Source: a virus. From it: a DNA stretch of 64,000 nt. Positions within the stretch are counted from its first letter, which is position 1. Each line of letters begins with the position of its first letter. This document shows, one piece after another, positions 3,009 through 8,159 of this stretch. A model generated the notes under the pieces. That model saw only the letters and a list, made by a program, of their open reading frames with translations. It was not told where the DNA came from and did no database searches. The translations under genes were made by a program, and so were the position numbers. The DNA lies in IMG/VR virus record IMGVR_UViG_3300027747_002969, positions 20,334-84,333 of that record; one strand, written 5' to 3'.

Positions 3009-4010
3009 ATGAAAAAATGGATCTTCATCACCGGAGGATGCGGCTACATAGGCAGCCATGTAGCAGCTGAAATCAAAGACAAGACTGACTATTCGGTGCT
3101 GTTGATCGATCGACGTGCTAAAGAATTAGTACACACTACTAAATTCTGCGATATGGTAGCCGATGAGGATTTTGCCAGCAAGGTCAGCCAGGAAGCCATT
3201 CGCGAATATCGACCAGAAACTGTGATACATCTGGCTGCCAACAGCACGATTGGTTCCAGTATGACCAATCCTGCTGGCACCTGGGAAAACAACGTGACCA
3301 AAATGCAGCAGTTGCTGTCATGCTGTGTGCAGAATCAAATTCGCAATGTAATTTTTGCCAGCAGCAGTTCGGTTTATGCAGATCAACATGTGGCCATTGA
3401 TGAATCGCATGCATTGTCCCCCTACAGTCCATATGCTACTACAAAGATGGTTGGCGAAATGATGCTGAGAGATTGGTACGGGGCGCATGGTATACGCAGC
3501 CTAAGCCTGCGTTTTTTCAACGTAGCAGGAGCACATACCAAATACGATCTTGGAGAGTTGCAGGGCAGCAGCCATTTGATGGCCAAGATTATGGAAAGTG
3601 TAGTAGATGGCCGTGATTTCACTGTATGGGGCAGGGACTGGCCTACTCCGGACAAGACTGCCATACGTGACTATACGCATGTCTTAGACATTACCGATGC
3701 AGTCTTATTGGCAATAAAATGGCTGCCAAACAATCACGGCGCGCATGTGATGAATCTTGGCGGTGGCCAAGGTCGCAGTGTACAGCAAATGATCAACACT
3801 ACCGAACTGTTGTTGAGCAAACAACTGCCATATCGATACGGCAATCGTTTGGATGGAGATAGTGCCATGAGATTTTCCAACAATGCTTGTGCATTAAAAC
3901 TACTGGGTTGGCAACCCAGTCGTGGATTAAATGACATCATTTTGGACAGTTTCAAATGGTACAACAGTGACATGTATCGTTCATTAACGCAAGCAAAAAT
4001 TGTCTATTGA
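3009..4010 (+). CDS. galE: UDP-glucose 4-epimerase (GalE-like extended SDR)
   Basis: TGGCGYIGSH, HLAA, ASSSSVY, YATTK (YxxxK), RFFNVAGA, IRDYTHV. Confidence 0.85.
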   Translation: MKKWIFITGGCGYIGSHVAAEIKDKTDYSVLLIDRRAKELVHTTKFCDMVADEDFASKVSQEAIREYRPETVIHLAANSTIGSSMTNPAGTWENNVTKMQQLLSCCVQNQIRNVIFASSSSVYADQHVAIDESHALSPYSPYATTKMVGEMMLRDWYGAHGIRSLSLRFFNVAGAHTKYDLGELQGSSHLMAKIMESVVDGRDFTVWGRDWPTPDKTAIRDYTHVLDITDAVLLAIKWLPNNHGAHVMNLGGGQGRSVQQMINTTELLLSKQLPYRYGNRLDGDSAMRFSNNACALKLLGWQPSRGLNDIILDSFKWYNSDMYRSLTQAKIVY

Positions 4011-4054
4011 ATGTCTCTGATAGAGAGATTATAACTGAGTTAGGAGGTACAGAC

Positions 4055-5749
4055 ATGTATGTTGATGCATTCTATGAACGTGATAAAAATCAAATATTAG
4101 TAGTAGAGCGCAACCGCGCTGGCAAACGCATCTACAACCAATTTCCTACCAAATACTGTGTGTATTGGCCCAGCGCTCGTGGCAAGTTTAAGAATATCTA
4201 CGGTACTGCCTGTGAAAAGTATCAAACTACTAAACTGAAAGAATTTACACGAGAAATTAATATCATTCCCAAGTTGACTCAGCATGAATCGGATATCAAT
4301 CCAGTGTTCCGCTGCTTCTATGACAACTACAAGGGTGTACCGGGACCAGACCTGCATGTGGCTTTTTTTGACATTGAAACTGACTTTGATCCTTTACGTG
4401 GGTTTTCCAGCACAGATGATGCATTTTCGCCAATAACTGCCATCTCAATCTATCTCAAATGGTTGGAAAGAAACTTTACCATGGTGATCAAACCCAAAGA
4501 CATGGATCAAACCACTGCTGAAGAAATTGTAGCCAAATTTGCCGATACAGTTCTGTGTGAAAGCGAAAAAGAACTGCTAGAACTGTTTCTGGGCATCATA
4601 GATGATGCTGATGTGCTGAGTGGTTGGAATTCCGAAGGCTATGATATTCCCTATATACACAATCGCATAGTACAGGTCTTGGGCAAGGAAGAAACACGCA
4701 AGTTGTGTCTCTGGGGAAAATATCCCAAGCGGCGTGAATACGAAGCCTATGGACGTCAGACTGTGACGTATGATCTAGTTGGTAGGATACACCTTGATTA
4801 TCTACAACTGTATCGCAAAAATACCTATCATGAAATGCACAGTTATCGTTTGGACTTTGTGGGAGAATATGAAGTTGGTGATAAGAAAACACATTACGAA
4901 GGCAGTTTAGATAGTCTCTACAACAACGATTTTGAAAGATTCATAGAATATAATCGCCAAGACGTCATGTTGTTGGTAAAGATCGATGCTAAAAACAAGT
5001 TCATAGAACTCAGCAACAATCTAGCACATGAAAACTGTGTGCTGCTGCCAACCACTATGGGTGCAGTGGGGTTGATCGACCAGGCTATTGTTAACGAATC
5101 TTGGGATCTTGGATTTGTTGTACCAAATCGCAAGAATGATCGCGCGAAACACCGCAGTGACGACGACGATGAGGATGACGATTCGGTCGACATATCTGGT
5201 GTGGTTGGGGCATATGTGGCTGATCCAAAACAGGGCATGCATGATTGGATTGGCGGTGTTGACATCAACAGTCTCTATCCCAGTGCCATTCGTGCACTGA
5301 ATATGAGTCCGGAGACTATCGTTGGCCATATCCGCCCAGAAAGCACCGACAAGCTCATCACCAAACGCATGAAGTCTGAAAAAAAATCATTTGCTGATGC
5401 GTGGAACAGCATGTTTGGCACATTGGAATATAACCAAGTGATTAATCAAGATCTCACACCAATAACAGTGGATTTTGAAGACGGTAACAGTCAAACTGTG
5501 TCAGCCAGTGAACTGTATGATTTGGTTTTCAAAAGTGGTAAGAATCTCATACTCAGTGCCAATGGTACTATATTTACCGGTGACAAGCAGGGCATTATAC
5601 CCGGTCTGTTGAGTCGTTGGTACAGCGAGAGAAAAGAACTGCAGGCTGAGATGCGACGATATGGGGATCTCTGTGCCAACGGCATAGAATTGTCAGCTGA
5701 TCTAGCAGATGAGGTTAGACAGATCCTTGCTGCAAACCAGACAACCTAA
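4055..5749 (+). CDS. polB: DNA polymerase B (gp43-like), fragment 1: 3'-5' exonuclease, motif A and first fingers helix
   Basis: ExoI FFDIET, ExoII GWNSEGYDIPY, ExoIII YNRQD, GAYV, motif A DINSLYPS, GIIPGLLSRWYSERK; AGGAGG RBS before ATG 4055. Confidence 0.92.
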   Translation: MYVDAFYERDKNQILVVERNRAGKRIYNQFPTKYCVYWPSARGKFKNIYGTACEKYQTTKLKEFTREINIIPKLTQHESDINPVFRCFYDNYKGVPGPDLHVAFFDIETDFDPLRGFSSTDDAFSPITAISIYLKWLERNFTMVIKPKDMDQTTAEEIVAKFADTVLCESEKELLELFLGIIDDADVLSGWNSEGYDIPYIHNRIVQVLGKEETRKLCLWGKYPKRREYEAYGRQTVTYDLVGRIHLDYLQLYRKNTYHEMHSYRLDFVGEYEVGDKKTHYEGSLDSLYNNDFERFIEYNRQDVMLLVKIDAKNKFIELSNNLAHENCVLLPTTMGAVGLIDQAIVNESWDLGFVVPNRKNDRAKHRSDDDDEDDDSVDISGVVGAYVADPKQGMHDWIGGVDINSLYPSAIRALNMSPETIVGHIRPESTDKLITKRMKSEKKSFADAWNSMFGTLEYNQVINQDLTPITVDFEDGNSQTVSASELYDLVFKSGKNLILSANGTIFTGDKQGIIPGLLSRWYSERKELQAEMRRYGDLCANGIELSADLADEVRQILAANQTT

Positions 5750-5779
5750 GTTTGATCATTGCATCGTTTTGGTTGGCTG

Positions 5780-5809
5780 TTGACATATCATCAACAGGTT
5801 TGGTATATT
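5780..5809 (+). promoter_or_regulatory. Sigma70-like promoter between polymerase fragments 1 and 2
   Basis: TTGACA (5780-5785), 18 nt, TATATT (5804-5809). Confidence 0.5.
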
Positions 5810-5833
5810 ATGATGAACAATATGGAGCTCCAA

Positions 5834-6798
5834 ATGGAAACAATTGACAGCTTGGTAAAGAAACGGGATGCTCGGGGTATAGCAGCATTTATCGAATCCA
5901 ATGGATTGGCTCTAAACGAGTCCAATCGCATGACAGCCGTATCGAGTCAAGCCAAAACTCGCTGCAAGCGCCAACAAGACTTCTATGATCAGCGCCAGCT
6001 TATCAAGAAAATCTTGCTTAATTCGTAGATCTGCGACGCTGATTGGCAACAATCAGATGACAACTGCTCTAATTGCTGGAAACTCCCTGACAGGGACAAT
6101 CAGCAGCCAAGCGTTGGAAACAACGAAGGTTCAACGACTAGATCGAAAGATCGTAGATCCAAGTGGATCGAAATGGGCAGCATCCCACGTGGATGGTGAT
6201 ATAGTCTCCTCTGCATGGTAACATGCAGCAGTGCTGTTAAAGCACGGGGCAGCATTAACGACGCTGTCTGAAGATCAAGGTGTATGGAGCTATTGGTAAT
6301 CCCAGCTCAAGGTTCGCAGACAACCGAGTGGCACAGAGCACCACTTTGACTGGTCGTTGCATTGTCAAACACATGGCAGGAAAGATTAATGAAACGATTG
6401 CAGGCGATTACAATCACACAGGGGTATCAATAATTTACGGGGATACCGATTCGGTTGACGCCGAATCAATTATTAGAACCAATTTAGGTGATAAAACTGT
6501 TGAAGACTTGTTTCTGAGTGGTAGTCTTTTTTGGCAAGAGGGCAACAAGGAATATTCAAGAAACGATGCAGTCCAAGTTGTCAGCTATCTTCCTGAAGAA
6601 AACAAGACAACTCTGTCCAAATATAATTATGTCTATCGTCATAAGGTACGGAAAAAGAAATATAGGATTACCACGTCTAGTGGCAAATCAGTTATTGTTA
6701 CTGAAGACCATTCAGTTATGGTGTTGATTGATGGACAACTGGTAGAAAAAAAGCCAACTCAGTTGACAAAAAATGATAAGGTTATTACCTTGTCATAA
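5834..6798 (+). CDS. polB: DNA polymerase B fragment 2, join(5834..6026,6281..6798): fingers, motif B, start of motif C, fused to N-terminal split-intein half
   Basis: Removing 6027-6280 gives QLIKKILLNS-L-YGAIGNP (motif B); then TLTGR and YGDTD followed by intein block A; GGAG RBS before ATG 5834 (5810 is an alternative start). Confidence 0.88.
6027..6280 (+). mobile_element. Group I self-splicing intron, 254 nt, no internal endonuclease ORF
   Basis: 5' exon ends in U (6026) in P1 helix UCGU|A-GAUC-UGCGA with a U.G wobble; P AATTGCTGGAAA, Q AATCAGCAG, R GTTCAACGACTA, S GATATAGTC; terminal G 6280; splicing restores a TTG Leu codon and the frame. Confidence 0.92.
6451..6795 (+). mobile_element. 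Split intein N-terminal half (IntN, about 115 aa), inserted at YGDTD|S
   Basis: Starts SVDAESII right after YGDTD; block B VIVTEDHSVMV; ORF stops at 6798 without the C-terminal HN. Confidence 0.9.
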
Positions 6799-6858
6799 AC
6801 AATTGTTCAACTATGCTGCGCCTGGTGTGTTGGGTTTGGTTAACGGATTCAACACACT

Positions 6859-6960
6859 AAGATCAAGGTCGCCACAGAAAGATGCTTTTAAGTGAAATAG
6901 TTTGCTGGAGAGAATTTGAAAATTCTCAAACAAATCATAGAGGAAGGTTTTAAATGGTGA
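6859..6960 (+). pseudogene. Possible degenerate C-terminal remnant of a Vsr/DUF559-like homing endonuclease
   Basis: Broken frames read KIKVATERCF* / EIVCWREFENSQ / KQIIEEGFKW*, with the stop overlapping the IntC start (ATGGTGA); resemblance judged by eye. Confidence 0.4.
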
Positions 6961-7085
6961 ACCACCTAATAGAGACGATTGAATCAATTGAAGAATTGGG
7001 AGAATTTGAAGATGAGTATGTCTATGACATAGGTATTGATCCAACTCACCCCTACTTCTTTGCAAATGATGTTTTGGTTCACAAC
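6954..7085 (+). mobile_element. Split intein C-terminal half (IntC, 44 aa)
   Basis: Acidic IESIEELGEFEDEYVYDIGI (block F) and FFANDVLVHN (block G), followed by Ser +1 (TCC 7086). Confidence 0.92.
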
Positions 7086-7937
7086 TCCGCTTATTTCTCG
7101 GCCTATCCGGTGATGAAAGATTCACCAGATTTCCAAGACTTTGAATGGACCAAGGAAGCAGTGGTAGAACTCTATGACAAGATTGGAGACATAACCAATG
7201 CCAGTTTTCCTGATTTTATGCGTGCAGCTTTCAATTGTCAGCCCAGCAGTGGAGCCATTATACGTGCAGCGCGAGAACTCTGCGCACTGAAAGGTCTATT
7301 CATTACTAAAAAACGCTATGCTGTTTTGATCTATGACAAAGAAGGCAAGAGGAAAGATTCCAATGGCAAGCCAGGTGAGATCAAAGCCATGGGTCTTGAT
7401 CTCAAACGCAGCGATACTCCCAAGATCGTGCAGGATTTTCTCAGTGACATCTTGGTTGATGTATTAACTGGCAGTACAGAACGGGACATTCAACAGAAAA
7501 TTCTAGAATTCCGCAAGGAATTTCGCAGTTGGCCTGGTTGGCTCAAGGGTTCTCCCAAGCGTGCCAACAAGATTACACACTATCAAAACATCATCAACAG
7601 TCAGGGTCCGCGAGGTACCATTCCCGGACATGTGCTGGCCAGCATCAACTGGAATCGATTGAAAAAGATCTATGGCGATCATTATAGCCAGTCAATACAA
7701 GATGGTGCCAAAGTCATAGTGTGTAAATTGCGATCCAATCCCAGTGGCTTAACATCCGTAGCATATCCTGTTGATGAATTGACACTGCCGCAATGGTTCA
7801 AAGATCTACCATTTGATGAAGAAGCAATGGAGTCAGCATTGATTGACAAGAAGTGTCAAAACCTTCTGGGAGTGCTGTCATGGGACCTCGAGTCAAATCG
7901 CGAGAACAGCAGTTTCAGCGATCTATTCAGTTTTTAA
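6954..7937 (+). CDS. polB: IntC fused to DNA polymerase B fragment 3 (rest of palm and thumb)
   Basis: After HN: SAYF..., KKRYA, IKAMGLDLKRSDTP, PGHV; ends with clamp-binding-like FSDLFSF. Confidence 0.92.
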   Translation: MVNHLIETIESIEELGEFEDEYVYDIGIDPTHPYFFANDVLVHNSAYFSAYPVMKDSPDFQDFEWTKEAVVELYDKIGDITNASFPDFMRAAFNCQPSSGAIIRAARELCALKGLFITKKRYAVLIYDKEGKRKDSNGKPGEIKAMGLDLKRSDTPKIVQDFLSDILVDVLTGSTERDIQQKILEFRKEFRSWPGWLKGSPKRANKITHYQNIINSQGPRGTIPGHVLASINWNRLKKIYGDHYSQSIQDGAKVIVCKLRSNPSGLTSVAYPVDELTLPQWFKDLPFDEEAMESALIDKKCQNLLGVLSWDLESNRENSSFSDLFSF

Positions 7938-7955
7938 AACAAGGAACAGCAAATA

Positions 7956-8159
7956 ATGGCCACTAAACCCACTACGATATACTCTCCAACTGATCTCAAA
8001 ACACTTGTTGACGCACTCAATGGAGCGCCATCATACTTGTCAAAGCGATTCATACTGAAGTGGCTCTGCGGTTGGACAGACGAAATGATCGAAACCAACA
8101 TGCGTATGAAACAGGAAGAAGACTATCAACACAAGACTGGAGAAAAGACATGGCGTTAA
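7956..8159 (+). CDS. Small protein resembling the C-terminal segment of T4-like portal proteins
   Basis: YLSKRFILKWLCGWTDEMIETNMRMKQEE; AAGGA RBS; overlaps the next start. Confidence 0.5.
   Translation: MATKPTTIYSPTDLKTLVDALNGAPSYLSKRFILKWLCGWTDEMIETNMRMKQEEDYQHKTGEKTWR

Follow-up and report, generated by a model that had tools for sequence, protein, structure and literature searches.

How can a replicative DNA polymerase be made from a gene that is broken in three places? The question is raised by a 64,000-nucleotide (nt) stretch of viral DNA, referred to here as "the window", which comprises bases 20334-84333 of the 84,333-base IMG/VR virus contig IMGVR_UViG_3300027747_002969 (CheckV completeness ~20%). 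The gene for a family-B DNA polymerase (PolB) is spread there over three same-strand open reading frames (ORFs): A (4055-5749), B (5834-6798) and C (6954-7937). One cut lies at the fingers tip, one in motif B and one in motif C, and closing any of them restores conserved sequence. We consider it likely that this is a three-cistron PolB whose pieces are rejoined by RNA splicing, protein trans-splicing and subunit docking, and whose breaks were left by selfish elements, with no regulatory purpose needed to account for them. Judged by its sequence, the locus is the replicative, T4 gp43-type family-B polymerase of an uncultured freshwater jumbo phage, with predicted activity. Its parts, in amino acids (aa) or nt, are as follows.

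4055-5749, + strand: ORF A, 564 aa, with the N-terminal and 3'-5' exonuclease domains, motif A, the first fingers helix and the first half of the fingers tip
5750-5833, + strand: A/B spacer, 84 nt at the fingers break, no endonuclease gene
5834-6026, + strand: B exon 1, 64 codons plus 1 nt, with the second half of the fingers tip and the second fingers helix, up to KILLNS
6027-6280, + strand: group I intron, 254 nt, ORF-less; U6026 pairs with a G in P1, and the terminal G is G6280
6281-6450, + strand: B exon 2 extein, from the remaining motif B (LYGAIGN) through motif C (YGDTD); PF00136, 27.6 bits
6451-6798, + strand: N-intein, 115 aa plus stop, with Ser1, NX motif RH and block B TEDH; no cysteine
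6799-6953, + strand: intein spacer, 155 nt, no ORF and no endonuclease remnant, with a strong hairpin
6954-7085, + strand: C-intein, 44 aa, with an acidic N-terminus, block F VYDIG and block G VLVHN
7086-7937, + strand: C extein, 283 aa plus stop, starting with the motif C Ser (SAYF), then the rest of the palm and the thumb

The protein domains and motifs fall in the order expected of a single polymerase. ORF A matches Pfam PF03104 (71 bits) and PF00136 (45 bits), and its palm motif A reads DINSLYPS. It also contains FFDIETDF, GWNSEGYDIPY and YNRQDVMLL, which we take to be motifs Exo I to Exo III. When the exteins of A, B and C were joined by script, a check that the preliminary description of this DNA had proposed, residues 2-968 of the resulting 968-aa protein aligned with the intact PolB (1012 aa) of Sinorhizobium phage Phosso at 49% identity, and residues 1-953 with the PolB of GAP32 at 41%. 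The joined protein also aligned with the PolB pieces of Atu_ph07 and PA5oct, and the alignment with the relatives is gap-free at the intron and intein sites. After the join, motifs A (DxxSLYPS), B (KxxxNSxYG) and C (YGDTDS) follow one another in order, B and C only by virtue of the in-silico joins. The exonuclease and polymerase motifs are all preserved, and each of the pieces carries its own start codon and Shine-Dalgarno sequence. The preliminary description had placed the polymerase in three ORFs with an intron in B, with motif B formed only after removal of the intron, motif C only after closure of the intein and motif A on a separate chain; the coordinates were confirmed to the base and the joins agree with this layout. 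It had also held that one active site needs three rejoining steps; the anatomy behind that claim stands and fits all the homology evidence, and the need itself is still a prediction.

The phage has no close cultured relative, since a megablast search of positions 4000-8000 against cultured phages gave no match and the best protein match among them, Phosso, is only 51% identical. A homologue search with B exon 1 returned a single match, the window's own 72-aa ORF, at 98% identity (1 cluster, 1 candidate). The 84-kb contig carries one PolB (the three pieces), one group I intron and one intein.

The cut in motif B is a group I intron. Rfam model RF00028 matches positions 6017-6228 with 83 bits (E 1e-20; gathering score 50) over the full model, 1-253; its splice-site U is U6026, and the intron ends at G6280. 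Joining 6026 to 6281 gives KILLNS/LYGAIGN in frame (a slash marks a break throughout), and unspliced B RNA enters a TAG at 6026-6028. A 26-base word of the intron core occurs in 45 IMG/VR contigs, mostly in genes other than polB, and this intron family is abundant in these communities. In five of the 45, the intron lies in a related polB at the identical site and scores 83.6-97.1 bits in Rfam; related loci are designated here by L numbers, and these five are L015, L029, L039, L045 and L052. L063 is a seventh case (104 bits), identified by Rfam and blastn. The closest introns in cultured phages (72-77% identity) sit in genes other than polB, namely the RNA polymerase beta gene of 201phi2-1 and genes annotated under large terminase in Escherichia myoviruses (V5 and its relatives).

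The introns of the window, L029, L039, L045, L052 and L015 were aligned (250-258 nt; n = 6, without L063), and the same rule, a U before the intron and a G at its end, restores KILLNS/LYG in 6/6. The structure predicted by RNAalifold has 71 pairs, with 99.1% of cells paired vs 90.3% in shuffles. Compensatory changes occur in 25 of the 71 pairs, a number reached by 0 of 500 shuffles (slid controls gave 0-3), as measured on six sequences with the structure predicted on that same alignment. In P1, the U-G pair at the splice site is invariant (6/6) and the neighbouring pair covaries: the exon base and its guide partner change together in L039 (GC in five sequences, CG in one). These patterns indicate an intron whose structure is conserved under selection and for which self-splicing is predicted.

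The cut in motif C has the features of a class 1, Ser1/Ser+1, cysteine-less split intein with predicted trans-splicing. The N-intein starts SVDAES, with Ser1 directly after YGDTD, and the C-intein ends VLVHN, followed by SAYF and 279 further residues. The N-intein scores 37.6 bits against the NCBIfam intein N-terminal model TIGR01445 (cut-off 24.5), and its nearest solved chain is 9hth_A, the Aes123 PolB1 intein (E 1.5e-11). Ser1, RH, VTEDHS (TxxH), block F VYDIG, HN and Ser+1 align with their counterparts in L029, L008, PA5oct and Aes123, and YVYRH of the window aligns with IMKH of 9hth (His68 after subtraction of 4 extein residues). Passages of PMC10189870 describe an NX-motif histidine that follows R or K as a signature of Ser1 inteins. 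Neither half contains a cysteine. The halves are encoded as two polypeptides: a stop at 6796-6798 is followed by the 155-nt spacer and by a new ATG with a Shine-Dalgarno sequence (GAGGAAGG at 6940-6947, upstream of the ORF C ATG at 6954). The spacer (6799-6953) forms a long hairpin, GGTGTGTTGGGTTTGG ... CAACACAC, and blastn and tblastx found in it no similarity to the endonuclease genes that occupy the same place in relatives.

According to passages of PMC11923092 and PMC13014065, the Aes123 PolB1 intein is naturally split (120 + 39 aa), lacks cysteine and trans-splices in vitro, and inteins of its type are found in the PolB genes of T4-like Aeromonas salmonicida phages. A tblastn search of cultured phages with the window's N-intein matched 23 records: 11 from the PA5oct group, 10 from Aeromonas phages, Salicola SCTP-2 and Lak-C1. 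Among the uncultured relatives, ORFs of 313-347 aa lie between the intein halves in L029, L011 and L039; those of L029 and L011 match no Pfam family.

Homologous inteins occupy two sites that are two residues apart. The site YGDTD/S is used in the window, L029, L008, PA5oct and the Aeromonas phages, and YGD/TDS, with Thr at +1, in L011, L039, L045 and L052; the intein seems to have been displaced by 6 nt. In L045 the YGD/TDS intein (~6067-6543) is a contiguous mini-intein that ends in KN in place of HN. A further insertion was seen in L011 (4117-7650 of IMGVR_UViG_3300025781_000038), where a full-length intein of ~430 aa lies in the PolB exonuclease domain (GWN/C...VHN/SE); it matches no Pfam name and marks a fourth insertion site in this polymerase family.

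The break between A and B is of another kind. Residues 501-533 of A align with residues 457-489 of RB69 gp43, the first fingers helix, which places the break at the fingers tip. A and B exon 1 are in the same frame, with in-frame stops TAA (5747) and TGA (5753) between them, and B has translation signals of its own, GGAG at 5824-5827, 6 nt before the ATG at 5834. Neither Rfam nor the intein models match at this break. The spacer holds a hairpin at 5777-5797 and, overlapping it at 5780-5809, a sigma70-like TTGACA-18 nt-TATATT with extended TG (11/12, the best of the region), from which B and C may be transcribed separately; the region as a whole shows no enrichment of such matches (7 found vs 9.8 expected). 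Of the features of a 43A/43B-type break, the position at the tip, the lack of intein or intron motifs and the separate translation signals are all present, and an endonuclease gene is absent from the 84-nt spacer.

In relatives the same gap is filled. A same-strand ORF of 398-412 aa occupies it in L015, L063 and L039, an opposite-strand ORF of 328-331 aa in L029 and L052, and a 431-aa zinc-finger/DUF723 ORF, also on the opposite strand, in L045. The ORF of L052 matches NUMOD3 (33.3 bits) and Vsr (27.1 bits; cut-off 27), and that of L029 scores 20.1 bits against Vsr, below the cut-off. The 398-400-aa ORFs of L015 and L063 match no Pfam family; their description as probably HNH-like rests on an HHILP motif read by eye. 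With three different endonuclease-like genes at one site, the fingers break appears to be a homing hot spot.

From these parts, the route to an active enzyme would run as follows. The three cistrons would be transcribed, and the B transcript would splice itself through the ORF-less group I intron; RNA that stays unspliced would yield only a 64-aa peptide. The B product (a 121-aa extein and the 115-aa N-intein) would then associate with the C product (the 44-aa C-intein and a 283-aa extein), and the paired inteins would trans-splice to give a 404-aa chain. This chain would dock non-covalently on A (564 aa) through the two fingers helices and the split tip. The breaks would be scars of separate selfish invasions, by an endonuclease at the fingers tip, by a mobile intron and by an intein with an endonuclease between its halves. 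All of the endonuclease genes would have been lost in this phage, leaving the repair devices, by now obligatory, in place.

Which relatives share the layout? The split, the intron and the split intein occur together in the window, L029, L052 and L039, where the contig of L052 stops after the N-intein and the sequence of L039 lacks the end of A. L029 is 80% identical to the window in A and carries endonuclease genes at both breaks. L045 combines the split and the intron with its contiguous mini-intein, and L015 and L063 have the split and the intron and no intein. Four loci, L008, L009, L010 and L011, have no fingers or motif-B lesion; of these, L008 has an N-intein and L011 a split intein at YGD/TDS, and L009 and L010 are close relatives without any lesion. 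We also surveyed 80 IMG/VR loci, the best tblastn matches among those listed by a pattern scan (without L029, L045 and L052), counting an insertion where the excess between tblastn segments was >90 nt; stops within segments fall outside this criterion. An insertion of ~1.4 kb was found in 2 of the 75 loci that reach motif B (L063, and L069, which is the L015 contig), and 0 of the 70 that reach far enough had an insertion beyond motif C. In most of the IMG/VR relatives (L072-L141, ~50% identical), the fingers tip is ~55-70 aa shorter than in the window, Phosso, GAP32, PA5oct and RB69; every split form has the long version.

A tree of the first ~540 residues supports the groups {window, L029, L045, L008} (99/99) and {L052, (L010, L011)} (98/99), and genes with a long tip, split and intron are therefore interleaved with genes that have a short tip and neither split nor intron. 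The identities conflict along the gene: B exon 1 of the window is 64% identical to that of L052 vs 48% to that of L029, and in A the order is reversed (67% vs 80%). This mosaic suggests that the segment from the fingers tip to motif B moves as a unit.

The same three lesions were found in a phage group distant from the window. GenBank record JN377894 (Aeromonas phage Aes508) annotates, in order, gp43A, a GIY-YIG Seg-like endonuclease, gp43B-1, a VSR-domain protein and gp43B-2; gp43B-1 is labelled "N-terminal fragment including group I intron and N-intein", and gp43B-2 carries the C-intein. With Rfam, a group I intron was confirmed in Aes508 (73.3 bits), Aes517, Aes144 and AS-gz, and none was found in Aes123 or Aes509; all three lesions are present in four of the six Aeromonas records examined (JN377894; JN377904, Aes517; JN377900, Aes144; MF479730, AS-gz). 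These annotations and introns refute the earlier statement that no known gene combines all three lesions, which also fails on at least three further IMG/VR contigs of the window's own clade. In AS-gz (L145 3666-4629), a 58-aa ORF annotated as "DNA polymerase" is separated by a 262-nt gap from an intein-containing ORF, and the gap holds an unannotated group I intron (Rfam 73.8 bits). Our literature search, which covered papers apart from their supplements, found none that describes the triple layout, which we know from GenBank annotation; PMC5539321 and PMC6043867 mention Aes508 without the words "intein" or "intron".

The Aeromonas gene 43 resembles the window in its fingers-tip 43A/43B split, its motif B intron and its cysteine-less split intein at ...DTD/S, all in the same order, and the inteins are homologous. 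The polymerases, however, are only ~30% identical, and the Aeromonas intron lies in codons G117-L119 (YGA/LGN, by comparison with the intron-less Aes123), ~3 codons past the window's site, with only short core stretches in common (86% over 37 nt). Because site and sequence differ, the Aeromonas intron was inserted independently, and with polymerases this diverged the triple layout arose at least twice. In all four of these Aeromonas phages a VSR-like endonuclease gene still separates the intein halves, and in Aes508 and Aes517 the GIY-YIG gene persists at the fingers break, whereas the window has neither; Aes144 and AS-gz, like the window, lack an endonuclease gene at the fingers break.

Other known systems share some of the breaks. 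The Pseudomonas jumbo phages MIJ3 and PA5oct have, according to passages of Imam et al. 2019 (PMC6892783), a split PolB with a split intein and an HNH/Hef-like endonuclease. Their intein is homologous to the window's (~40% identity) and sits at the same YGDTD/S, and the PolB of the PA5oct group is 46% identical to the window's in A; unlike the window, they carry a 560-aa endonuclease gene between the halves and lack both the fingers split and the intron. The two-gene PolB of Agrobacterium phage Atu_ph07 (MF403008) has its fingers-tip break no more than 4 alignment columns away from the window's and likewise a short in-frame spacer (18 nt) without an endonuclease gene; unlike the window's, it has neither intron nor intein. 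Passages of PMC2988022 describe essential enzymes cut at an endonuclease site, gp43A and gp43B of Aeromonas phage 25/44RR and NrdA-a and NrdA-b of Aeh1; their halves reassemble non-covalently, 43A and 43B of phage 25 co-purify and are polymerase-active, and, unlike the window, each has one lesion only. The fractured genes of Dassa et al. 2009 (PMC2677866), as that paper's passages present them, are split inteins in conserved replication genes of environmental phage-like DNA, at gp41, NrdA/J, IMPDH and DnaE; at gp41-7, as in the window, the endonuclease gene is missing between the halves, a loss that the authors' model predicts. Those passages describe neither a PolB locus nor any gene that combines its split intein with an intron and an intein-free split. 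A free-standing endonuclease gene between the halves, the mark of a fractured gene, is absent from 6799-6953 and present in L029, L011, L039 and PA5oct. Excerpts of PMC12880540 report gut jumbo phages in which genes including that for DNA polymerase are fragmented by many introns, inteins and endonuclease genes.

We favour selfish invasion over regulation because relatives have endonuclease genes at both protein-level breaks and because lesion-free close relatives exist. Several points weigh against our reading. The assembly of the 404-aa chain with A is proposed by analogy with gp43A/gp43B in Aeromonas phages, and the dependence of one active site on RNA splicing, protein trans-splicing and subunit docking is predicted from homology. 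As the contig represents ~20% of the genome, a second polymerase could lie elsewhere. Some of the Pfam matches fall short: ORF C scores 22.2 bits against PF00136 (cut-off 23), the N-intein 35.4 bits against PF14890 Intein_splicing, just below the cut-off of 35.8, and the C-intein, weakly, 19.4 bits against the same family. Wild-type Aes intein splices with an efficiency of only ~30% in vitro, according to passages of PMC11923092. The 16 public runs from 10 studies that contain the stretch or parts of it are all DNA, with no RNA run among them. Blastn and tblastx comparison of both spacers with 10 related loci found no endonuclease remnant at E <=0.05, and the loss of the endonuclease genes is therefore argued from the relatives.

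A further possibility, which we put forward tentatively and consider somewhat doubtful, is that the fingers-tip endonuclease gene and the motif-B intron ~190 nt downstream form one co-mobile unit that spreads by collaborative homing. The free-standing nuclease would cut intron-less motif-B DNA, and the ORF-less intron would protect its carrier. Every intron-bearing gene seen is also split, 7/7 in the window's clade and 4/4 among the Aeromonas records; this co-occurrence would follow from collaborative homing, as would the interleaving of the two gene types in the tree and the appearance of the triple layout on two occasions, in polymerases that share only ~30% identity. If so, the window would be an end state in which the nucleases have been purged and the three scars fixed as obligatory steps in making the enzyme.

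The preliminary description had suggested a layered checkpoint on replication. On this reading the rejoining steps would be retained to gate polymerase production, for instance through GTP/Mg for splicing or through subunit concentration. The layout does persist in lineages whose A proteins are 20-40% different, Aeromonas phages have it as well, and all of the repair devices are conserved. Persistence is expected in any case, however, since elements in catalytic motifs cannot be deleted imprecisely, as passages of PMC2988022 state. Moreover, L009 and L010 do without any lesion, as do 73 of the 75 informative loci among the best 80 surveyed, the breaks coincide with homing-endonuclease genes in relatives, and no regulatory element was found beyond the one promoter-like match, of a kind that is not enriched. 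We therefore regard a checkpoint as unsupported and improbable; the endonuclease genes at the breaks and the lesion-free close relatives point to selfish invasion instead.

It is also quite improbable that this PolB is an unused, decaying pseudogene and that an intact polymerase is encoded outside the sampled fifth of the genome. The small sampled fraction would allow it, and group 2.2 jumbo phages also have a split minimal Pol III alpha, according to passages of PMC7824862. A pseudogene would hardly be expected to keep all of its exonuclease and polymerase motifs, a start codon and Shine-Dalgarno sequence on every piece, an intron structure maintained by compensatory changes, intact catalytic residues in the intein and a layout retained across diverged relatives.

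Very little speaks for a joining of A and B by stop-codon read-through or by ribosomal bypass of the 84-nt spacer, and we rejected bypass after considering it. The shared frame, the hairpin within the gap and the likewise in-frame 18-nt gap of Atu_ph07 would suit such a mechanism; against it stand the two in-frame stops, a last sense codon (ACC) without a matching landing codon in the spacer (by eye), B's own GGAG and ATG, and the gap in L015, L063, L029, L052 and L045, which holds a gene of at least 1 kb, on the opposite strand in three of them.

An assembly or sequencing artefact is hardly credible, because, even though the contigs of all four runs break within the intron core, the broken contigs overlap, the flanks are bridged on both sides in runs of four studies with 0-2 differences, the core word that recurs in 45 IMG/VR contigs explains the break as a repeat, and seven diverged contigs show the same layout. 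These were Logan contigs from four DNA runs of four studies (X3, X4, X7 and X8). Record 1 of X3 spans 3900-6156 with 2 differences and record 6 spans 6127-8100 with 0, and records 9 and 16 of X4 and short pieces of X7 and X8 bridge the A/B stops, both intron borders and the intein spacer. The contigs end at ~6125-6156, and their loose ends continue into other sequences, as fits a repeat. No intron-less or fused form was reported among the contigs of the four runs. Assembly error, which the preliminary description had named as one outcome that would undo its reading, is not borne out by these independent metagenome assemblies, which bridge every break. Runs X4 and X7 also contain a variant allele of the exon 1/intron junction (5952-6154; depth in X4 49 vs 33 for the main contig), with leucine codons of KILLNS changed synonymously and with a P1 loop that also differs; the same intron is therefore present in a second strain or relative.

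Directly upstream of polB, at 3009-4010, the window has a gene for an NAD-dependent sugar epimerase (PF01370, 162 bits). The same neighbourhood occurs in L011 (3044-4039), L045 (1356-2363) and L052 (5055-6044) and is not found in Phosso, Atu_ph07, PA5oct or GAP32.

In annotation, loci of this kind are readily mistaken for three small "DNA polymerase" genes with no connection to one another, as happened in AS-gz. The class of natural cysteine-less split inteins related to Aes123 PolB1, of which only four useful members are known according to passages of PMC13014065, is enlarged by those of the window, L029 and, at the YGD/TDS site, L011, L039 and L052. If the predicted steps hold, the locus would be a clean natural example of a single active site that depends on all three of RNA splicing, protein splicing and subunit docking. 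With the window, the triple layout is documented in a second phage lineage, far from the Aeromonas phages and with an independently inserted intron. The window would represent the endonuclease-free end state predicted by the gene-breaking model of Dassa et al., and the fingers tip, motif B and motif C of PolB appear to be recurrent targets of homing elements.

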